Shown here: piece after piece, positions 7,230-47,245 of the stretch
How the letters are laid out: each line of letters opens with the position of its first letter
How positions within the stretch are numbered: the stretch's first letter is position 1
Assembly: GCA_051453625.1 (NCBI GenBank)
Contig: JBOZIK010000001.1
Span: forward strand, 13,797,803-13,846,914
DNA length: 49,112 nucleotides
DNA from: Welwitschia mirabilis
Lineage: Eukaryota
Reading direction: 5' to 3'
Translations under genes and position numbers: made by a program
Notes under the pieces: model-generated
Database searches by the model: none
Told to the model about the DNA's origin: nothing
What the model saw: only the letters and a program-made list of their open reading frames with translations

Positions 7230-8640
7230 TAAGATTCTATAAATATTCTAAGAGTATTTTTTAAAGAATGTGATGAAGAGTGTTAAATATTGAAAGATGA
7301 GGGTTAATGATTAGAAGATGATAATAAGAGATATTGATTGTAAGATTAACTTGTAAAGGCTAGATTAGGATTGTTTTATTTTCATAAAAACATTTAATTG
7401 ATTTCTTCATCTAGAATTACATGTATTAGAGTAAGAGATTTTTAATCCTAGGTTTTTCATTGTTGTCCTATGATCTTTACTTGCTTCTTCACTATATCTT
7501 AGAACATGAGAATCAATGAGTATTCCAAGCTTTCATGGGTATCTACATAAAAGATGAAATAATTAATTTAATGAATGATATTCTTAAAAGGGGTTTCAAG
7601 AAATTTAATCTTCTTTAAAAGTTCATATAATTAGTTACTAACCTTAGAGTTGTTAGAAAGGAAAAATATGCTAATATACTTAATAGAATAATGTGATCTA
7701 TATGGTTCAGTTAGCTTCTTCTAATTTTTAAAACTCTTAGAGATGGTCTCTAAGAAATTTCATGCTCTATCTATTTCTATGTCTAAGAAAATTCCTTATA
7801 CATCATTTTTATACATTATCTATGGTTCAAGAAAAAGTCATCATAAAAGAAATTCATAACTTTGTCCTACTCAAAATCATATTAGAAATACTTAAGTAGT
7901 AAATATTTAAAACATTCTAGGCCTTGAAAAAAATTTCATTATCTTTTTATTGAAAATTCATGACTTCTCTTTTAAGAATTATTTTTAATTATTAAAAAAT
8001 AAAAAATAAAAAGAGGATTTATAAAATAGGATTAATATGAGGACATCTGATATGATTGGATTTTGAGGGATAGTGGACAAGACACATTCAAACTTTTTAA
8101 GATGTGAATAGAAATGTTTAGACTCTAAACCATGAAAATGTGGTAATAGTTAAATGATAACTAGTTTGAAATAAATTCTATGAGCATTTAAAGGTTAAAC
8201 TATATAGGATGGGATTTCCTAGAATTAAGGCTAAAGGTAATCTTTAGGATCTACCTTAGTATTTAAATGTTAGAGTGCTTTTTAAGAAACTTAGATTGAA
8301 AGTGTGACTATTTGTTTTGGTATATATGAAAGTTTTGGTCAAATATTTCTAATCAATAGCATCTAGAAAACAACCTACCTTCATGATCTAATTTTACGTT
8401 CATGTTATTATTTGAGTGGATATAATGAAATTATTTATCAAGTCTATGCTGCTAGTTCACCAAACATTTTCATAAAGTAGGGCTTACCAACATCAACAAA
8501 TGTTTTAAAAGGATCTAAGATAAAATTCTATGTAGTTTGAAGGTTAGACTTAAAGAAAGAATAATAGCATTAGTGAGGAAAGGTAGTGGCATTAGTAGTT
8601 TTATGAAAAATAGATTGCAAAAAGGGTGAAAGATCTATTT
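7230..8640 (+). mobile_element. Highly degenerate retrotransposon internal relic, possibly a copia gag/protease region
   Basis: Only weak motif traces, e.g. gatagtggacaagacacatt resembling DSG.S.H at about 8069-8090; no continuous frame. Confidence 0.25.
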
Positions 8641-8670
8641 CAACTAGGGAGAGAAATTAGAATTATTAGT

Positions 8671-9170
8671 AAAAATTTTTGGACTTAAAAAATTTTTAGA
8701 CTTAAAAAATTCTGGACTTAGAAAATTTTTAAACTTAAAAAATTTCTTGACTTAAAAAATTTTTAGGGCTTAAAAAATTTTTTGGACTTAAAAATTTTTA
8801 GAACTTAAAAAATTTTAGAAATTATAAATTCTATGGACTTAAAAATTTTTAGGACTTAAAAAATTTGAAAACTTAAAAGTTTAAAAAGTTTTAGGACTTA
8901 AAAAAATTTAGGACTCAAAAAAATTTTGGACTTAACAAAATTTTAGGACTTAAAAAATTCTAAGACTTAAAAAATTTTTAGACTTAAAAAGTTATTAGAC
9001 TTAAAAAATTTTTTGACTTAAGAAATTTAAAATAATTTTGAACTTAAAAAAAATTTTGGACTCAAAAACTTTTAACTTAAAAAATTAAATTTTTTTAACT
9101 TAAACAAATTTTGGACTTAAAAAATATATAAAACTTTTGGACTTAAAAATTTTTTAGGAATTAAAAACTT
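8671..9170. repeat. Minisatellite of ~19-20 bp (consensus about TTTTTAGGACTTAAAAAA), roughly 25 copies, at the 3' end of the PLE
   Basis: Directly visible repeats of ggacttaaaaaa(a)tttt(t)a; one monomer also starts the other pLTR copy at about 13467. Confidence 0.95.
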
Positions 9171-9500
9171 TACAAGGGTCTCACACTATAGTGAAGACAT
9201 AATGAAAAACATAATACTAAAGAGAAAAAAAGAAATCCAAGAAAAGAAACAAAAGATAGCACAAAGCACTTTCAAGGAGTTACACCCCTCATTAGTGTAC
9301 TTTTGAATTTCTAATTTTTAAATCTTTGAATACATGAAGAAGATCACTTCTTTAAATAGGAGAGGTTACCCTAACTATGTGTGGACAAAGGGACTCAAAG
9401 AAAGAGTAGGAAAAAATTACATTTTAAATTTTAAATTCACATCTTAGGAAATAATAAATGAAAAGAAAAGAAAATAAGTAACACCCTATGGAACAGATAG
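9152..9500 (-). repeat. 3' pseudo-LTR of the PLE
   Basis: Aligns by eye with 13467-14107 (tttacaag..ctatagtgaag..aaacataatact..agatagcacaaagca.tttcaaggagttacacccctcattag..ttttgaatttctaattt..tttaaatag..aaataagtaa..ccc.atg). Confidence 0.85.
9258..9301 (-). ncRNA. Decayed minimal type I hammerhead ribozyme (copy in the 3' pLTR)
   Basis: Minus strand reads AGTACA-CTAATGA-GGGGTGTAACTCCTT-GAAA-GTGC-T-T-TGTGCT. Stem I is AGTACA/TGTGCT (6 bp with one GU). The core CUGAUGA carries a G>A change, followed by stem II, GAAA and a near-palindromic minimal stem III A-G(C>T)GC-T. Confidence 0.75.
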
Positions 9501-9565
9501 AAAGCATGGGGATGGGAAAAATAGAATCTTCTAACTACTCTGATTAATCTAGAATCTTTATGGAA

Positions 9566-12500
9566 TTAGTTACATGTAAAAAGTTTTCCAAGTTTAGGAG
9601 GATTACACTAGTAAATTATTGGATTTGAAATAACTGGGCTCAGCATGAGATCTTTTTGATGAAGTCTGGAGAGTATAGGATCTAGGATTGCCTTCATGTT
9701 ACAAGATTTTGTTAAAGGATTAAAATCCATTTTGAAAATAAAGGTATCTCTTTCTTCTTCTCAATGCTTTCACATATGCTATGGAGAAGAGCTATTTTAT
9801 TAAATACATAAACTTTACTAAAGTAATGTAAAAGAAACTTGAAAGGATAGCCATGGGTGCAAAGGTAAAGATACACATTACACTTAAGTTTGGAGTAGTC
9901 TTGAAAGTTGGACTCCTACATCATGTATCTGCAAAGATATAAAATAATAAAAGCCTTTTTCTAATGGGCTGAATGCCAAGAGGAGAAGGGGATGTATTGA
10001 TAGGCATTCAAAGGTTTTTAATAGCACTTGATGGACAAAATTCCTATAGAATCAAATGTAAGATCTTTGAATAAAACAACATAAAACATATTAATAGATT
10101 CTTGGGACATTGTAGAAGTAATGTAAATGATGGGGTACATAGAATTATAGTTCTCCAGAAATATTAGTAAGGAACATAAAAGACCAGTTCAAATACCAAA
10201 GCTATTATCAATATAACACTTGTAGTAGAAACGAAAATTTCTGTTCATACTAGAGAAAAGATGTTTTTCTAGATGAAAGAGGAATAAAAGAACATGCATT
10301 ACTATAAAATCACTACCTAGAGCAGTACCATGAACTTATTTGAACAAATTGCCATCAAAATCTAGATAATATTCTCTAAGGATAAGAGAAGATAAAGAAA
10401 TAATGGCATCTAATAAAACTCCTAATTAGAATAATGATGCAACATAAAATACTCTTCAACCATAGATTTAAGAGTAGAAAGATCTACTTTAGTGGAAATA
10501 CTAGGATACAAGGATTTCACATTGAAGGTAAAGAAGAATCCATCTTGTGGAATGGATAAAAACTTAGATTCCTAATGAGAGAAACTAAGTCTATGATATG
10601 GATGAGCTGGCAAAATAGGATGGGGGAGAGTAAGTAGTAAAGAAGAAAAGATGTTAGTTTTAAAATATACACAAAGTAGTTACAGATGGGATGACCAATA
10701 AAACTAGGTTTGTTTATTTTGAGTATAAGGCACATGCATGAGCCTTATTAACTAATACCTAAAGGAGAGCATCTCTAAACTACTAAAGAATAGGAACAAA
10801 TGGTCAAGAAGATGAAGAAGATTAGAATGTAAAATATTTCAAGGGATTTCATCAAATAGATAATAAACATGGGTATTTAAAAGTTGTTTATGAGCTTTTG
10901 TGATATACCATAACATGTCTAGTATAATAATCCAAAGGTTTTTATCTGCTAGTTTAATGATAATAGAGTTATCTCTTTAAATNNNNNNNNNNNNNNNNNN
11001 NNNNNNNNNNNNNNNNNNNNNNNNNNNNNNNNNNNNNNNNNNNNNNNNNNNNNNNNNNNNNNNNNNNNNNNNNNNNNNNNNNCTAGTTTAATGATAATAG
11101 AGTTATCTCTTTAAATTCGTTTTAGGAATTCTAAAAGATAACAAGATAGACAAGGATAATTAATTTCTATAAAAGAACTCAAAGCAGACAAAGTGTATCA
11201 TAACATTGACTAATGTCCTTTCAAGATAAGGGTTGACCTTGCTAGCTGGGGGATTCCAAGAATTAGGAGGTTAAAGCTTCATTGGGGCAATGTCAATAGC
11301 ATGAAGGAATGGATTGAATTTTTTACCTGATCTGGTCTAATGCCAAAGAATGTATGAAGGTAAAGACATATAACAAATGCTTTGAATTCATCCATCATTA
11401 GTTAAGGACTCATAGGAGGGAATCTAGGATGTATTTGAGATCATATCTAAAAATATTTTTCTCTTCATAGTTTAAAGAATGGAAAGAAAGATTATGAATA
11501 TCTAGGTTAAAAATTCTATTTTCCTCTTAAGGGATCTATTTTCTTTCAAAAATGATCATAGAGAAGAGGGAAACAGATGTGGCAAGAATCCAAAAATTTA
11601 TGCTCAGTCAGAGGAAGGATTTATCCATCTAAATAGAGTAGCATTTCCATTGAAGGTATTTGGCTATAAATCATATTAAGTAGTTTGCCATATCTGTTGG
11701 TAAGTTTACCACTTGTCTAAACTACTCATAAGCATTGTAGATGAATGGTTTGAAGGGAGTTCCATTTTGTTTGTAGGAGTTATTCTGGAATGGCCCTTAA
11801 TCATTTAAATCAAAATAGATTTGCTATTTTCATCCATAAGGATTACGACTTTGATTTACTTATGGCTGGTGGTAAGCTTGTGGCTAGAAGCTAGACTAAG
11901 AGGTAGATTTAGAGCATTGATCTTTTTGTATAAATTGAATCCTTCACTAATGTTGTTGTTATTACTACTTTTAGTTGAAGAAATAGGTCTTTGTGACTGA
12001 GGAGATTGAATTTTTTGAAGAACGTTTTGGGTAATTTTGTTAGTTTGAGATTCTATGACCTACTTAATAATTTTTGTAATCGAAGGTTCAACTTTAATCT
12101 AGTTAACTCCTTATTCTGCAGCATTTCTGGCATTACATTAACTGATTTTGCATTTTTTTGGCTTCTTGTTCAAGCTAAAGCTATAAAAAATAATTGCAAC
12201 AATATTCAAAAATCTTAGATTCAAAAGCATTTAGAAGTGATTTTAGATTGACTATAGCTCTAGATAGTTTAGAGTAATTAATTTTGGAAATAGCTTCTTT
12301 GAGTTTCTTAAAATAAGAAACTTTGAAACCATCAAGTTTTGCTTTTAGAGAATCTTCATAAGATGAAGCAATGGTGAAGTAAGCCTACTAAATTTCTAAT
12401 TAGATTTAAACTAAATTTGGGCAAACTCAACATGCATGGCTTTATTAATTTAAGGATACTCAATAGAAAGCTATGGGGATATAACCTATAGGCTATGAAT

Positions 12501-13420
12501 AACAAGATCTTCTGNNNNNNNNNNNNNNNNNNNNNNNNNNNNNNNNNNNNNNNNNNNNNNNNNNNNNNNNNNNNNNNNNNNNNNNNNNNNNNNNNNNNNN
12601 NNNNNNNNNNNNNNACTGATTTTGCATTTTTTTGGCTTCTTGTTTAAGCTAAAGCTATAAAAAACAATTGTAACAATATTCAAAAATCTTAGATTCAAAA
12701 GCATTTAGAAGTAATTTTAGATTGACTACAGCTCTAAAGAGTTTAGAGCAATTAATTTTGGAAACAGCTTCTTTGAGTTTCTCAAAATAAGAAACTTTAA
12801 AACCATCAAGGTTTACTTTTAGAAAATCTTCATAAGATGAAGCAATGGTGAAGCAAGCCTACTGAATTTCTAATTATATTTGAATCAAATTTGGGCAAAC
12901 TCAACATGCATGACCTTATTAATTTGAGGATACTCAATAGAAAGCTATGGGGATCTAACCTATAGGCTATGAATAACAAGATCTTCTGAGAGAAGGAAAT
13001 GAAGTTTTTCCTTTAGATGAGTGGCTTAAGCAGTAATGTGAAGATTATCAAAGTAATCTTTAGAAGAGATAATTATAAGATCTTCCAGTGGAGAAGGAAT
13101 CTTGACATGAGATACAAGAGAAAAGTTTGCATTCTTTACTTTTTGGAGCTCTGCTTCTAGATGTTAAAATTAACCCTGTAATTAACTGCATTTCTATAAA
13201 ATATTACAAGCAAGATCCTTTCAATTGGTCTTTTGATGACTGAACATAGCCTTATTATCCTTGAGACATTTATATGGGTATATTTATACTAGGGCCTATG
13301 CTAAAGAAGAAGATACAACTTGCAAGAAATGCTCAGCTATGAATCTTGAGCTTAAGGTTGAGTAGCAGGATCTTGTGGTGAAGAAGGGAAACCAAATTCA
13401 TCCTAAAAGATATAAGACAT
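9566..13420 (-). pseudogene. PLE polyprotein: N-terminal helical/low-complexity region plus Penelope-type reverse transcriptase, no GIY-YIG detected
   Basis: Manual translation across stops and frameshifts, in PLE order: IHNLSFHSLNYEEKNI (~11.5 kb); IIIKLADKNLWIIILDMLWY...KQLLNTHVY (~10.9 kb); LKINKPSFIGHPICN (~10.7 kb); FTFNVKSLYPSI (~10.5 kb); FDGNLFK*VHGTALGS; YKCYIDNSFGI*TG (YIDD box at 10204-10215); CY*KPLNAYQYIPFSSWH; HGYP; NPPKLGKLF then stop. Candidate ATG at 13420. Confidence 0.9.
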
Positions 13421-13618: not shown

Positions 13619-13740
13619 TTTGAATTTCTAATTTCTAAATCTTGGAATACATGGAGGAGATTCCTCCTTTAAATAGAAGAAGCTAGGGGCCCAAAGAAAG
13701 GATAGGAAAAAATTTCACTTCAAATTTCAAATTCCCTTCT

Positions 13741-14090
13741 TAATAAATAAGAAACAAAAAGAAATAAAATAAGTAATAGAAAAAAATAAAATAAGAAATA
13801 AAAAGAAAATAAAATAAGAAACAAAAAATAAAATAAGAAACAAAAAGAAAATAAAATAAGTAATGGAAAGAAACTAAAATAAGTAATAGAAAGAAAATAA
13901 AATTAGAAATGGAAAGAAAATAAAAGACAGAAAGAAAATAAAATAAGAAATGGAACGAAAATAAAATAAGTAATGGACAGAAAATAAAATAAGTAACGGA
14001 AAGAAAATAAAATAAGAAATGGAAAGAAAATAAGATAACTAATAGAAAGAAAATAAAATAAGAAATAAAAATAAAATAAAATAAGTAATG
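13741..14090. repeat. A-rich ~22-bp minisatellite (about AAGAAAATAAAATAAG(T/A)AAT(G/A)GA)
   Basis: Visible repeats of aaataaaataagtaat/aaataaaataagaaat; the matching position in the 3' pLTR has only about one unit. Confidence 0.9.
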
Positions 14091-14107
14091 CCCCATGAAA
14101 TACATAG

Positions 14108-15245
14108 TTGTCAGGCCTAGGCCTCCACCATAGTTATCAGGCCCATGGACAATTTCATCATGCTACTTACAAACCCCCTTCTATATATTAACTATAAAAA
14201 TATTATCTCTGGGTGAAAAAAACAAGGTGTACTAACCTCAGATTAAGTTGTATATAATGGTTTCCCTTGCCTTATCTTTTAACTCATGGGACATGTTCTT
14301 CGTCATATCCTAAAGTTCAAAAATTCTATTGTTAAGCATGCCTAGCGTGGAGCACAACTGGAACGGATGACCTTTTGAAAAGTGCCACCTACAAGTATAG
14401 GCTTGGGGCCTGTAAGCGATTTCATCATGCTACTTATAGCCCCCCTCTATATATTAACTCTAAAAATATTATTTTTAGATAAAAAATAAGGCATAATAAT
14501 CTTAAGATAAGTGGTATATAACTATTTTCTATTCCTTGTCTTTTAACTTGTGGGACATGTCTTTTACTGTATCATGAAACCCAAAAATTCCATGGTTAAG
14601 CATGCCTAGTATGAAGTACAACTAGGATGGATGACCTCCCAGGAACTGCCACCTACAACTANNNNNNNNNNNNNNNNNNNNNNNNNNNNNNNNNNNNNNN
14701 NNNNNNNNNNNNNNNNNNNNNNNNNNNNNNNNNNNNNNNNNNNNNNNNNNNNNNNNNNNNNACTCATGGGACATGTTCTTCATCATATCATGGAGTTCAA
14801 AAATTTTATTGCTAAGCATGCCTAGCGTGGAGCACAACTGGGATGGATGACCTTTTGAAAAGTGCCACCTACAAGTATAGGCTTGGGGGAACACATCATT
14901 ATTAGGCCTGTAAGCAATTTCGTCATGCTACTTATAGCCTCCCTCTATATATTAACTATAAAAATATTATTTTTAGATAAAAATAAGGCATAATAACCTC
15001 AAGATAAGTGGTATATAACTATTTTCTATTCCTTGTCCTTTAACTCATGGGACATGTCTTTTGTCGTATCATGAAACCCAAAAATTCCATGGTTAAGCAT
15101 GCCTAGTATGAAGGACAACTGGGATGGATGACCTCCTAGGAACTGTCACCTACAAATATAGGTCTGACCCCTCATCATAGTTATTAGATCCATGGATGAT
15201 TTCATCATGCTACTTATAGTCCCCCCTCTATATATTAACTATAAG
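14108..15245 (+). repeat. Tandem array of ~270-280 bp units, each containing a 5S rRNA-derived internal control region (Cassandra-like or 5S-derived)
   Basis: Four blocks (~14318-14383, 14582-14647, 14798-14863, 15080-15144) such as aattccatggttaagcatgcctagtatgaagtacaactaggatggatgacctcccaggaact align ungapped at roughly 70% to plant 5S rRNA as recalled (aactccgcagttaagcgtgcttgggcgagagtagtactaggatgggtgacctcctgggaagt). The unit marker atttcatcatgctactt recurs at ~14152, 14419, 14917 and 15199. Confidence 0.8.
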
Positions 15246-36102: not shown

Positions 36103-39100
36103 TATTAACATGTAAAAATTGACATTCTAGTTAAATTAATTAATTAATTTATCTTATGGACTTATCATCTTTTCATAACATTTTTAGGATATTTATTACA
36201 CTTTTACGAACATGTTTTAAAATGATGATTATCCAAGCTAAAATGGTGGCACTACAGTCTAGGTTACCTAACATCATTGGTCCTATATAGAATACTCCCA
36301 AACTCATGTTCCTAACTTATCATGCAAAATTAAGTCAAATGTAGTTATGAAATTAATCATATTCTACATTAAAAATGACTTGCATCTTTGATGATCCATG
36401 GTCGTGATGATGATGACATGTAGTAATGACATGTAGTATTGCTAAGTAGGATGATTATAAAAACACATGACAACATTAGTAATTAGCAAAAGAAGTAGCA
36501 TCTAGAAGTTAAGTGTTACACTCATCATAATGATTTCTACCTAATGCAAGATGACAAATGTTCATCTAATGCTACATGCCATATTTTATAACCCCTCATC
36601 TAATACTATAAGTCAAGGGATTATAAGCATCATTCACCTTCCATCCTTGTTTATAAAAGAGCCTTAAGCCCTTAGTTATAACATTCTTTATTTTGAAAAT
36701 CGAAAGAATCCTTGGAGTGTCAAGTTAACATGGCCTTATGAGTCCTTTATTTAGGAAGAAAGCTTGCTATAAGGATATCTTGACGAGTCTCATCTAGCTT
36801 CCTTCTTTTTTTGTTATTAATGTATCTTTTCTTTAATATAAAGTAGATGTCATTTTGATTTTGAGTTATAAATAACTTCATACTTTTAATGCTTAGTGAA
36901 TCTACTCTATTAAGTTCTTTTATCACTTGATTCAATTCATTAGTTAATTGATCTAAGTTATTTTTAATTTGATGGATCTTGAGTACACTAAGTCCTTAAC
37001 TTCCATGCTTATTTTAAGGCTATGAAGGATAAAGTAACTTTTGAATTTACCAAATATCATATGATAAATGTGATTATATCACTATAATCTCATTAGAGTC
37101 AAGAATAGATGGTGGATAAATTAGATGAGCTTGCTTACTTTCTTGCTTCTCCAATCAAAATTTTAAAACATTTCTTAATTCTCTATCTTTTTTTTATTTG
37201 TAACTTATAAGTTAAGCAAGATTGTGTAATTTCTANNNNNNNNNNNNNNNNNNNNNNNNNNNNNNNNNNNNNNNNNNNNNNNNNNNNNNNNNNNNNNNNN
37301 NNNNNNNNNNNNNNNNNNNNNNNNNNNNNNNNNNNTGTAGTATTGCTAAGTAGGATGATTATAAAAACACATGATAACATTAGTAATTAGCAAAAGGAGT
37401 AGCATCTAGAAGTCAAGTGTTACACTCATCATAATGATTTCTATCTAATACAAGATGACAAATGTCCATCTAATGCCATATGCCATATTTTATAACCCCT
37501 CATCTAATACTATAAGTCAAGGGATGATAACCATCATTAACCTTCCATCCTTGTTTATAAAAGGGCCTTGAGCCCTTCATTATAACATTCTTTATTTTGG
37601 AAATCAAAAGAATCCTTGGAGTGTCAAGTTGACATGGCCTTATGAGTCCTTATTTAGGAATTAAGCTTGCTATAATGTTATCTTGACAAGTCTCATCTAG
37701 CTTCCTTCTTTTTTTGTCATTTTGATTTTGAGTTATAAATAACTTCATACTTTTAATGCTTAGTGAATCTATTCTATTAAGTTCTTTTATCACTTGATTC
37801 AATTCATTAGATAATTGGTCTAAGTTATTTTTAATTTGATGAATCTTGAATACACTAAGTCCTTAACTTCCATGCTTATTTTAAGGCTATGAAGGATCAA
37901 GTAACTTTTGAATTTACCAAATCTCATATGATAAAAATGATTATATCACTATAATCTCATTGGAATTAAGAATAGATGGTGGATAAATTAGATGAGCTTG
38001 CTTACTTTCTTGCTTCTCCAATCGAAATTTTGAAACATTTCTTAATTCTCTGTCTTTTTTTTTATTTGTAACTTATAAGTTAAGCAAGATGCTGTAATTT
38101 CTAAAATTCAATCCAAATTATCTCTATCAAATAATGATATTGATTTTTAAACTATTTTTAAATCCAGTTATATATCAAAATGAATAAAATAGTGGTTTCT
38201 TTATTAGGGATAAAAGCATGGTAGCTACTCAGAAAGAGCACAAATTTTACTTTTTGTTAGTTTTTTAGTTAGTTTTTATTTTTTAAGTGATAGATACTAG
38301 TCCACTTCAGTGATATGCAAGATGATCCTCATGTTCTTTCTTTTGTATATTATTTCCTTTTTCTTTTTTTTTTTTTAGTAGTTTGTATTGATTACTTCCA
38401 GTAATACCTAAACTAGTGTTGCTTTTAGCTTTTTTAAGTTTTTGGTCTAACTTAATTTGTATGAAAGTCTGATAAGTTTTATAGGTTATAATCATAAAGA
38501 TAAAAAATTAAAATTTTTCTTAACTCTCATTACATGGTTTCTTTTTCTTATACCTTTTTAATTCAGGTTTCAAAATTCTATTCAATGAAGTTTGCAAGTT
38601 TGCTATTATAAGGATTACAAATATAAAAAAATTTAGGATTTAATTTTTATTATGATAGGTTTGTGTGCATTATCACATTTCATTTTTGTGATTATAATAT
38701 GTTTAACAATCTATAATAATTTTGTGAATCCCTAAAACATCTATGAAATTAAAAATTTCATCTAAACTAGTGATGACACATTTCTTAAGTGATGCTACTA
38801 GATTTTTTACTCAAAAGTCTCTCATACTTTATAGAAAGCCTTTTGTGTTACTCATTTAAACCCTTTTTGGTATTGGACCTTCTTTGAATGTTCAAAGATT
38901 CATGAATACATAATCTTTTAATAATCTTCATACACTATTCTTTAAATCCTAATATGGGTTAAAAATCTATTTTCTTTGTGAGATAATATAAAGTACCTTC
39001 TAAACTCTCATCTACCTATGAAAACTGTGAAAACCTTTATGAATTGCTTAATCACATTTAACCTAAGAAAACTTATTGGACTACCTCTAATTTAATTATC

Positions 39101-42100: not shown

Positions 42101-43394
42101 NNNNNNNNNNNNNNNNNNNNNNNNNNNNNNNNNNNNNNNNNNNNNNNNNNNNNNNNNNNNNNNNNNNNNNNNNNNNNNNNNNNNNNNNNNNNNNNNNNNN
42201 NNNNNNNNNNNNNNNNNNNNNNNNNNNNNNNNNNNNNNNNNNNNNNNNNNNNNNNNNNNNNNNNNNNNNNNNNNNNNNNNNNNNNNNNNNNNNNNNNNNN
42301 NNNNNNNNNNNNNNNNNNNNNNNNNNNNNNNNNNNNNNNNNNNNNNNNNNNNNNNNNNNNNNNNNNNNNNNNNNNNNNNNNNNNNNNNNNNNNNNNNNNN
42401 NNNNNNNNNNNNNNNNNNNNNNNNNNNNNNNNNNNNNNNNNNNNNNNNNNNNNNNNNNNNNNNNNNNNNNNNNNNNNNNNNNNNNNNNNNNNNNNNNNNN
42501 NNNNNNNNNNNNNNNNNNNNNNNNNNNNNNNNNNNNNNNNNNNNNNNNNNNNNNNNNNNNNNNNNNNNNNNNNNNNNNNNNNNNNNNNNNNNNNNNNNNN
42601 NNNNNNNNNNNNNNNNNNNNNNNNNNNNNNNNNNNNNNNNNNNNNNNNNNNNNNNNNNNNNNNNNNNNNNNNNNNNNNNNNNNNNNNNNNNNNNNNNNNN
42701 NNNNNNNNNNNNNNNNNNNNNNNNNNNNNNNNNNNNNNNNNNNNNNNNNNNNNNNTTAAGTAGTAAGCTTATTGCAAGAATAGCTTGAGGAGTTTCTTCT
42801 AGCTTCCTTATTCTTTTAGTTATGTAATGTATCTCTTTTAATTAATATAAAGAATATGTAATTTTAATTTTGAGTTACAAATAACTTCATACTTTTATTT
42901 CTTAGTGAATCCACTATATAAAGTTCTTTTATCAACCATGTAAATTCATTAGTTAATTGGTCTAAGTTATTTTTAATTTAATGAATCTTAACTATACTAA
43001 GTCCTTACTTTCATGCCTATTTAAGGCTATGAAGGATTAAGTTACTTCAAATTCATCAAACCTCATATGGTGCATGAGATTATGTCACCATGATTTAAGA
43101 TGTTATTAATTGATAGTTTAAAGCGTGTTTTAAAAAGGTGAAAGACCTCATCAGAGTAGAGAAGAGCTAGTGGATGAATCAAGTGAATCCTTAGAGGTCA
43201 CTTACTTTCCTACTTCTCCCATATAAGTTTTAAAACATTTCTCAAGCCTTTTTCTTTTCCCTTTTTTTTTACTTTTTAACTTTCAAGTTAAACAAGATTG
43301 CATAATTTTTGAAACAAAATTACAATTATCCATATGAAAGAATGATATCAAGCTTTAACTAAATTTTAAATCTAGATCATTACTCAAATGAATA
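36103..43394 (+). mobile_element. Athila-like non-autonomous LTR element (5' LTR ~36103-38187 including a gap duplication, 3' LTR ~41469-43394)
   Basis: Two diverged direct repeats about 5.4 kb apart. Decayed tRNA-Asp-type PBS tggtttctttattaggga (38193-38210) resembling tggcgccgttgccgggga. Internal PPT-like tttgaggaaaaggtttaattttgg (~41241); terminal tttactaagagtttagtgaaagtctaattaggaagtg before the 3' LTR. Possible TSD ATATT (low complexity). No pol motifs inside. Confidence 0.55.
40431..40760. repeat. Tandem duplication of ~164 bp
   Basis: taatgatctaattaca...tatatgttggta..aaaataa occurs twice, contiguously, with scattered substitutions and no gap between. Confidence 0.92.
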
Positions 43395-45039: not shown

Positions 45040-47245
45040 AGTTCATAACATCAGGTTATGAAATAAATGAGGTAGATTCCAACATAAGGAGGTATTCTTA
45101 TTTTAACTAGGCAACCCCCATGGATTTTAAGAATCCATAGAATTCACATCATTAGTCTATTAAGTAAATGATGTAGTTTGCAACATTAGGAATTGCTATT
45201 ATTTTATCTAAATAGCTTATATGACCCATAAGAATCTAAGGAATTTACATCATTAGTCTAAGGAGCATGAGATATTTTTCAATGTAAGGANNNNNNNNNN
45301 NNNNNNNNNNNNNNNNNNNNNNNNNNNNNNNNNNNNNNNNNNNNNNNNNNNNNNNNNNNNNNNNNNNNNNNNNNNNNNNNNNNNNNNNNNACCCATAAGA
45401 TTCCAAGGAATTCACATCATTAGTCTGAGGAGCATGAGATATTTTCCAATGTAAGGAAGTCTTACTGTTCTAAGTAAGTAGCACCTATGGCTTACAAGGA
45501 TCCATAGAATCTATATTATTAGTTTATGGAGTAAATAAGGTAGTCTCCAACATAAGGGAAAACCACTATTCTTAATACATAGTGCATATAGCTTATAAGG
45601 ATTTATAGAGTCTACATCATTAGTCAATAAAGTAAATGATATATTTTCCAACATAATGCAATGTTACTATTCTAACTAGGTAGCACATATAGTGCACAAA
45701 GATTTATAAAGTCTACATCATTAGTTTATGAAGTAAATGAGGTACTTCCAACATAAGAAGATGACACTTTTTTACTAGGTAATCCACATGACATACAAAA
45801 TCCCACAGAGTTTACATCATTAGTCTATGAGTAAATTAAATAGTTTCTAATAGATAACATTACTATTTTGAATAGAAAGTCCATATAGCTCACAAAAACT
45901 TATAGAATTAACATCATTATTCTATGGATCAAATGAGGTAGTTTCCAATATAAGAAGACACTACTATTCTAATTAGGTAGCACATATGACACATAAGAAC
46001 TTATAAAATTTATATTATTAGGCTATAGAATAAATGAGATAGTTTCTAGTATAAAGGACACTATTATTTTTACTAGGAAATCTATATGAAAAACAAGAAA
46101 TCATAGAGTTTACACCATTAGTTTAAAAAGAAAATGAGACAATTTCCAACATAAGGAGATGCTTTTGTTCTAACTACATAGCTCATATGATCTAGAAAAA
46201 CCTAGAGAGTTTATGTCATCAGTTTACAAGTAAAATGTGTTAGTTGCAAACATAATGGAGTGAACTATTCTCACTAGTAGTTCATATGGATTATATGAAT
46301 CCATAGAGTCTATATCATTATTCTACAAAGTAAATGAGGTAGTTTCTATCATAAGGAACTCCATTAATCTAACTAGGTAATTCCTATGACTTATAAGGAT
46401 CAAATCTACAAAATTAGGCTATAAAAAATATGAGGTAGTTTCCAACATAAGGGATGTTATTATTTTGACTAGGTGAATTATATACCCTATAAGAACTCAT
46501 ACAATTCACATCATTAATCTACAAAGAAATTAAGCTATTTTCAACATAAAACAACACTATTATTCTAACTAGGTAATCCATGTCGCTCATAAGAACTTGC
46601 AAATTTCACATCATTATTCGATGGAGAAAATGTGATAGTTTCCAACATAAGAGGGTGTCAATATTTTGATTAGATACTACATATGGCTTACAAGAACTTA
46701 CAGAGTATACATCATTAGTATATAAAGTAAATGAGGTAATTTTAAATATAAGGAAATGCTATTATCATAATTAGGTAGTTCATATAGCCCAAAAGAACCC
46801 ATAGAGCCACATCATTAGTCTATGAGGAAAATGAGGTAGTTTCCAACATAAGAAAACATCATTGTTCTAACTAGGTAGACCATATAGTTTAATAGTCTGT
46901 CCAACAAATGAAGTAGTTTCCAACATTAGTGGTGTCATACTTCTAACTCAATGGTCCATATGGTCCATAAGAAAACAGTTTACATCATTAGTCTATGAAG
47001 TAAATGGGATAGTTTTTAATATAAAGGGGTGTCACTATTTTTACTAATGGCTCATATAATTCAAAACAATTTTCAAAGTCCACATCATCAGTTTATAAAG
47101 AAAATGAAGTAGTTTCTAAGATAAGAGAATATTATTATTCTAACTAGATAGTCCATATGACCCATAAGAACTTATAAAGTTCACATCATTATTTTGAAGG
47201 AAATGAAGTAGTTTCTAACATAGGGAAATAATAATTATTCTAACC
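45040..47245. repeat. Diverged ~100-bp satellite array, about 21 monomers
   Basis: Recurring catcattagtctat.gagtaaatgaggtagtttccaacataagg...ttctaactagg...catatg..cataaga at ~100-bp spacing, with one truncated unit near 46890. Confidence 0.95.

Follow-up and report, generated by a model that had tools for sequence, protein, structure and literature searches.

A 44-nt string on the minus strand at 9301-9258 of the window (the whole stretch of 49,112 nt of Welwitschia mirabilis DNA analyzed here) is very probably a defunct minimal type-I hammerhead ribozyme, of the kind that Penelope-like retroelements (PLEs) carry in each of their pseudo-LTRs. As it stands the motif is almost certainly inactive. 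An earlier note, written from the letters alone, had read it in just this way, as a fossil minimal type-I hammerhead that no longer works, and the repeat context, the related loci and the letters of other family copies all speak for that reading. The motif is nothing out of the ordinary for a dead mobile element: it belongs to a known ribozyme class and lies where that class is known to occur. For this single locus the significance is little, one more decayed copy of a known class of PLE ribozyme; an inherited change in the core of the motif, common in the family, bears more widely on whether PLEs require their hammerheads in order to transpose at all.

The motif and its host element

Direct reading reproduced exactly the 44-nt string that had been quoted from positions 9258-9301 of the minus strand, and the same positions match the relaxed descriptor described below. 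In sense order, this copy (copy A) consists of the 5' strand of stem I (9301-9296), a CTAATGA box (9295-9289), a 15-nt helix II region (9288-9274), GAAA (9273-9270), a GTGC loop (9269-9266), T at position 16.1 (9265), T at H17 (9264) and the 3' strand of stem I (9263-9258). The stem I of 6 bp that was said to close the motif is there, with all six pairs formed (five Watson-Crick and one G-U). A second copy (copy B), absent from the earlier note, lies on the same strand at 13618-13575, so that the two copies are spaced 4317 nt. Copy B has the same CTAATGA box, an ATGC loop and five of the six stem I pairs; it differs from copy A at three positions, two in stem I and one in the GTGC loop.

Some hallmarks of the hammerhead are intact. 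Helix I is closed with U16.1 and a non-G residue at H17 (T at 16.1 and T at 17), and the run G12-A13-A14 followed by A15.1 is present as GAAA at 9273-9270 and again in copy B. Others have been lost. Position 5 of the core box C3-U4-G5-A6-N7-G8-A9 is A in both copies, and substitutions of G5 are strongly inactivating in classical mutagenesis. The closing pair G10.1-C11.1 is replaced by a G9288-U9274 wobble, and helix II of copy A, in the register first proposed for it, has four pairs of which two are G-U. The segment from A15.1 to U16.1 reads AGTGCT in copy A and AATGCT in copy B, neither of them strictly palindromic; the AGUGCU of copy A still self-pairs through two G-U wobbles, at -3.8 kcal/mol. 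The lowest-energy fold adopts another helix II register that absorbs G8 and A9; the hammerhead fold of copy A, at -5.6 kcal/mol, lies above the minimum free energy, which is -10.7 kcal/mol. The predicted cleavage site of the ancestor falls between 9264 and 9263.

A TATA-like element had been placed about 50 nt from the motif, and CTATTTAAA is found at 9359-9351 (minus strand) with its last base 50 nt upstream of 9301. The same CTATTTAAA stands at 13676-13668 (minus strand), 50 nt upstream of motif B. It is conserved across both repeats in the alignment of copy A and copy B, and in copy A it is a probable pLTR promoter element.

The pseudo-LTR setting that had been proposed for the motif was borne out, in that the motif occurs in both arms of a direct repeat flanking a decayed reverse-transcriptase (RT) gene of the same strand. 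The downstream pseudo-LTR, containing copy A, spans 9465-9140 (minus strand; blastn and MAFFT alignment) and is matched by hundreds of contigs. The upstream pseudo-LTR, containing copy B, spans 13761-13464 (minus strand) and was found by blastn of copy A against the window. These repeats of about 320 nt have the same orientation and are 78% identical including gaps (blastn), or 84% over aligned columns (MAFFT, columns 55-385); the 48 mismatches at 307 aligned positions, 30 of which are transitions, amount to 16% divergence.

The RT gene lies between the two repeats on the motif's strand, at 11586-9590, and is interrupted by stops, frameshifts and a 100-N gap. Its homology emerged only via phmmer and tblastn; Pfam gave no relevant hits, either on the short gene pieces or on a 106-aa read-through piece (P0001). 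A phmmer search of that piece against 1.84 billion representatives returned 61 hits at E<=1e-3 (best 8.7e-15), and RVT_1 was present in six of the ten hits scanned with Pfam. In tblastn, residues 1-86, 166-209, 249-304 and 351-577 of the best relative (P0002, 604 aa) are collinear over 11586-9739, the last of these blocks at 45% identity (E 4.8e-53). The window piece at 10839-10976 reads KLADKN where the relatives' consensus is IKPADKNLG, which is the N-terminal DK(G) motif. Weak homology of the gene tail reaches 9590, which is only about 125 nt from the repeat at 9465.

No endonuclease domain is detectable in the element. In the 11 closest relatives whose ends were read, the protein stops right after the RT thumb, and among 16 long relatives scanned with Pfam there was no GIY-YIG domain except in the distant P0035. 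The element thus has the PLE layout (repeat, RT, repeat) and fits the endonuclease-deficient kind, an assignment founded on RT homology and layout. With a shattered RT gene and repeats that have diverged by 16%, the element is itself dead. The stretch at 9.1-13.8 kb can accordingly be annotated as a dead, endonuclease-less PLE.

The window as a whole has 26% G+C and 23 runs of N totaling 3888 bases. CpG is extremely depleted, the ratio of observed to expected being 0.11 for the window and 0.06 for the element, and since TpG, CpA and TpA are near expectation this depletion reflects CpG-specific decay rather than a RIP-like process. At 9201 the loose-end consensus has CpG where the window has CA or TG.

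Three further repeats touch the element. At 8636-9160 a 17-nt sequence, with AAGTCC in it when read on the minus strand, is iterated in tandem about 30 times, and this array adjoins the 3' end of the downstream repeat. A single 17-nt unit also closes each of the two repeats, which gives the array the look of expanded element sequence. At least 11 tandem units of a T-rich 23-nt repeat occupy 13727-14113, directly upstream of the upstream repeat. Inside the element, 12141-12440 and 12615-12914 are 93% identical at a spacing of 474 nt, straddling the 100-N gap; this internal duplication may be genuine or may stem from misassembly.

Family copies and the age of the core change

We compared 9165-9600 with the contigs of two DNA runs (X1 and X4) and with the raw reads of two RNA runs (X13 and X16), at a likeness of at least 80%. 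The DNA runs yielded 368 and 376 matching contigs, from which it follows that the repeat is a member of a large family. Of the public runs listed as containing the stretch, none was an RNA run. Few RNA reads matched the stretch (12 of 12.5 million records in X13 and 2 of 11.1 million in X16); none of these was at least 99% alike to copy A, and their starts and ends formed no pile-up.

Six differences from copy A are listed within the motif, given here on the sense strand with their shares of depth in X1 and X4, which the likeness filter biases towards copy A's own sub-lineage. U>C at 9299 (93% in each run) converts the G-U pair of stem I to G-C. A>G at 9296 (47% and 51%), at position 2.1, creates a CpG. 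A>G at 9293 (46% and 60%) restores G5, U>C at 9275 (51% and 50%) strengthens helix II, and U>C at 9268 (34% in each) restores the palindromic AGCGCU. G>A at 9273 (41% and 53%) destroys G12. Four of the six therefore lead towards the canonical hammerhead, one is neutral and one, at 9273, leads away from it. The last is presumed to be a CpG site, and G12>A would be the product expected when a C11.1-G12 CpG decays on the other strand. With G12 replaced by A in about half of the family depth, many other copies are broken too, and no fully intact hammerhead copy was seen among the matching family contigs.

These letters bear on the three reversions that the earlier note had proposed as a way back to a canonical motif. 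Two of them, to CTGATGA and to GCGC, do occur in the family depth, at the shares just given for 9293 and 9268. The third, T>C at 9274, does not figure in the 40 differences listed, beyond which there are 173 more; it may draw support indirectly, via the G>A change at the adjacent 9273. The description of the changes as methylation-type transitions does not suit G5>A, which stands in a TpG and not in a CpG context. It had also been held that a family consensus keeping CTAATGA would tell against the hammerhead; with A and G about equally common at position 5 in the family depth, the consensus neither clearly keeps that box nor clearly discards it.

G5>A and the TT before GAAA are common to both repeats and were therefore brought along by the source copy. 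As A5 is present in either repeat and in about half of the depth of the family, G5>A was inherited and is not the product of decay after insertion; judged by these letters, G5>A predates the insertion. The main alternative is that all of the defects, G5>A included, arose after insertion, from a source copy that was canonical and active, a course of events that the earlier note implies. Decay of the kind it calls for has been rampant, the CpG ratio of 0.11 pointing to widespread C>T and G>A change, and it could further appeal to the differences between the repeats (mismatches at 48 of the 307 aligned positions, including 30 transitions) and to the presence of G5 in about half of the family depth. 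We nevertheless regard this alternative as improbable. With A5 and TT before GAAA in both repeats, identical independent changes would have been needed at several sites; G5 does not stand in a CpG; and A5 makes up 40-54% of the family depth, compared with 7% for the near-private letter of copy A at 9299.

Our preferred reading, that of a hammerhead already defective in its source copy, supposes the following history. In a live ancestor, as the PLE literature would have it, transcription would start at the TATA-like promoter of the upstream repeat, giving an RNA with one hammerhead near its 5' end and another in the downstream repeat. The short palindrome from A15.1 to U16.1 would let the two hammerheads pair into a shared helix III, and cleavage after H17, at the equivalent of 9264|9263, would trim the transcript to unit length. 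Copy A would have lost this ability through A at position 5, through the change of G10.1-C11.1 to G-U and through the breaking of the palindrome to AGTGCT (AATGCT in copy B). The source copy would have belonged to a sub-lineage with a dead core, and later decay, largely at CpG sites, would account for the letters at 9296 and 9268 and for the differences between copies A and B.

A further and much more tentative proposal is that a PLE sub-lineage with a dead hammerhead core (A5) and no endonuclease kept copying itself to tens of loci. The evidence is the presence of A5 in both repeats and its share of 40-54% of the family depth at a non-CpG site. The A5 copies may instead have been multiplied by segmental or tandem duplication, without retrotransposition. 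If the proposal is true, the spread of the dead core would show, in a natural genome, that PLE retrotransposition can do without hammerhead cleavage.

Related loci, chance level and model searches

The earlier note had assigned the motif to the minimal hammerheads of PLEs, with their palindromic helix III, and related loci agree with this. With an alignment of ten relatives we fetched 80 related RT loci from metagenome contigs. A minimal type-I hammerhead descriptor found 49 sense-strand motifs in 41 of the 80 loci, and none on the antisense strand. The A15.1 to U16.1 segment is palindromic in all 49, a property that the descriptor does not demand. When position 5 was left free in the descriptor, it was G in 49 of 50 relatives, and the closing pair 10.1-11.1 is G-C in 16 of 18.

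The placement of these motifs is also like that in the window. Eight of the ten closest loci contain a hammerhead, six by descriptor (L001, L002, L004, L005, L006 and L008) and two by the covariance model R1 described below (L007 and L009). In six of these eight it lies 207-1290 nt past the RT match; in the window there are 438 nt from the last strong RT homology (9739) to 9301. The two motifs that the descriptor missed, at 5494-5536 of L007 (42 bits) and 97-139 of L009 (39 bits), make 41 of 80 a lower bound. Seven loci have two or three motifs each; the spacing is 3.0-4.3 kb in six of them and 11.3 kb in L026, the window's own spacing being 4.3 kb. The loci L022, L024, L031, L035, L048 and L060 are made of head-to-tail units of 3.0-4.3 kb with one minimal hammerhead each, L024 having three successive units (motifs at 2089, 6396 and 10705).

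A TATA-like heptamer occurs 20-90 nt upstream of 20 of 47 relatives' hammerheads, at 35-57 nt in 19 of these, and in 410 of 5000 random 70-nt windows (8.2%); the TATA-like box in the window is 63 nt from C3. When the window's repeats were aligned with those of the closest relatives (MAFFT), the TATA-like boxes were brought into register and the hammerheads were not; the homology of the repeats is too weak to be of use.

We estimated the chance level with a relaxed descriptor (CTRATGA, helix II of at least 4 bp, GAAA, 0-6 nt, T, H, and stem I with at least 5 of 6 pairs). In the real window it has two matches, which are the sites of copy A and copy B. In windows simulated by a first-order Markov model the mean was 0.012 matches per window, with a match in 12 of 1000 simulations; these figures are to be read knowing that the descriptors were composed post hoc, with the motif already known. 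A chance match is rare per window yet expected across a large genome, so the evidential weight rests on context.

A search with hammerhead models, which had been suggested as a check, failed to recognize the motif. Rfam at the gathering threshold had no match in the whole window, and at E<=10 its three matches in 8800-9800 included no hammerhead family. Rfam was equally silent on the relatives L001-L020, although minimal hammerheads are present there, which makes Rfam alone a weak test for the minimal form. An exact degenerate pattern of the motif had no match in the metagenome contigs.

The model R1 was built from 18 relatives' hammerheads with a 4-nt loop III and no bulge, 6 of 24 rows being excluded as bulged. 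In its training alignment 90% of cells are paired, with changes on both sides in ten of ten pairs, a pattern partly built in by the descriptor. On 30 held-out relative loci R1 gave 26 matches at E<=1, scoring 12.8-42 bits, 25 of them on the sense strand and 11 at E<0.01, and it recovered the two motifs that the descriptor had missed. Applied to the whole window at E<=10, R1 gave 12 hits, the hammerhead-like motif not among them. Applied to the 81 nt around copy A, it scored 6.1 bits over exactly 9301-9258, skipping helix II; on the 81 nt around copy B it had no match at the motif. Set against the scores of the relatives, those of copies A and B place the motif, as it stands, well outside the relatives' natural variation.

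These results leave very little room for the view that the 44 nt are a chance look-alike with no link to a ribozyme, an AT-rich repeat in which CTAATGA and GAAA happen to be flanked by complementary letters. Such a view would make sense of the silence of Rfam and of R1 in its whole-window search, of the 31 occurrences of CTAATGA in the window (both strands together), of the unremarkable fold z-scores (copy A, -1.67; copy B, -0.90), and of the hundreds of chance matches to which 0.012 per 45 kb extrapolates in a gigabase-sized genome. It offers no account of a sense-strand site in the repeat of an RT element when hammerheads occupy the equivalent place in the relatives (41 of 80 loci, always on the sense strand and never on the antisense strand), nor of family letters that lead towards the canonical form at four of the six listed sites. 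Less credible still is a live non-canonical ribozyme whose A5 variant continues to cleave, helped for example by the element's protein: A5 is abundant in the family, AGUGCU can self-pair, and PMC11167929 describes one PLE hammerhead that cleaved in vitro only upon addition of protein, whereas G5 is kept in 49 of 50 relatives and the locus combines its A5 with a G-U pair at 10.1-11.1 and a dead RT, so that nothing there selects for hammerhead activity.

Two other parts of the window drew attention during these searches. A satellite at 45042-47226, with at least 13 copies of units of about 100 nt bearing CTAATGATG or CTGATGATG on the minus strand, was considered as a ribozyme array and rejected; Rfam found no hammerhead in it, and the best R1 hit (47059-47097, 13.9 bits, E 0.08) has no helix II. 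The satellite is unlikely to be an array of ribozymes. At 36432-38014 and 42834-43012 direct repeats follow one another at intervals of about 870-900 nt. Within them, at 36729-36771 on the plus strand, there is a weak hammerhead-like string with a CTTATGA box and an AGCT palindrome (R1 13.1 bits, E 0.14), a second copy of which is without GAAA; it may represent another decayed ribozyme-bearing repeat, or chance.

Comparison with known systems

The minimal hammerheads of PLE pLTRs are described as having a palindromic helix III and acting as dimers (PMC4209133; PMC6765202). The two copies in the window resemble those described by Cervera & De la Pena 2014 (PMC4209133) in their type-I topology, in the presence of one sense-strand copy per flanking repeat, in a helix I of 4-6 bp, in having, in place of a real helix III, only a short palindromic segment that implies dimer action, and in belonging to a large and heterogeneous family within a genome. 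They differ from the hammerheads of that account in having A5, a G-U pair at 10.1-11.1 and a broken palindrome, which mark a relic rather than a working member, and also in lacking, in the helix II register first proposed, any unpaired base between A9 and 10.1.

As surveyed in PMC8557442, hammerheads occur in all PLE clades except Naiad and most Chlamys, whether or not there is an endonuclease. The endonuclease-deficient PLEs of that survey (Athena and Coprina) are like the element in the window in having an RT-only gene that ends just past the thumb and a hammerhead near the 3' end. By their description there, Athena and Coprina are attached to telomeres and have reverse-complement telomeric repeats beside the hammerhead; the family in the window, in contrast, comprises hundreds of fragments, and no telomere-like repeat was seen beside motif copies A and B when the sequence was read directly.

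Animal non-LTR retrozymes (PMC7229834; bioRxiv 10.64898/2026.07.22.740005), as characterized in these reports, likewise have type-I hammerheads with a short helix III and are evolutionarily linked to PLE pLTRs. Retrozymes are short, tandem, non-coding repeats, whereas the motif in the window sits in repeats 4.3 kb apart that flank an RT gene.

Poseidon of Anolis carolinensis, as presented in PMC11167929, is a further case of a PLE hammerhead in a pLTR. According to that account Poseidon possesses an endonuclease, and the start of its gene falls within the hammerhead; in the window, the ATG of the box is followed by a stop after six codons. Catalytic mutants of the Poseidon hammerhead are reported there to insert in vitro without impairment, in keeping with a lineage that spread despite its dead core. 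Naiad PLEs, in the description of PMC8557442, thrive without hammerheads. Multiplication of a dead core, should it have happened in this family, would agree both with those in vitro mutants and with the hammerhead-less Naiads.
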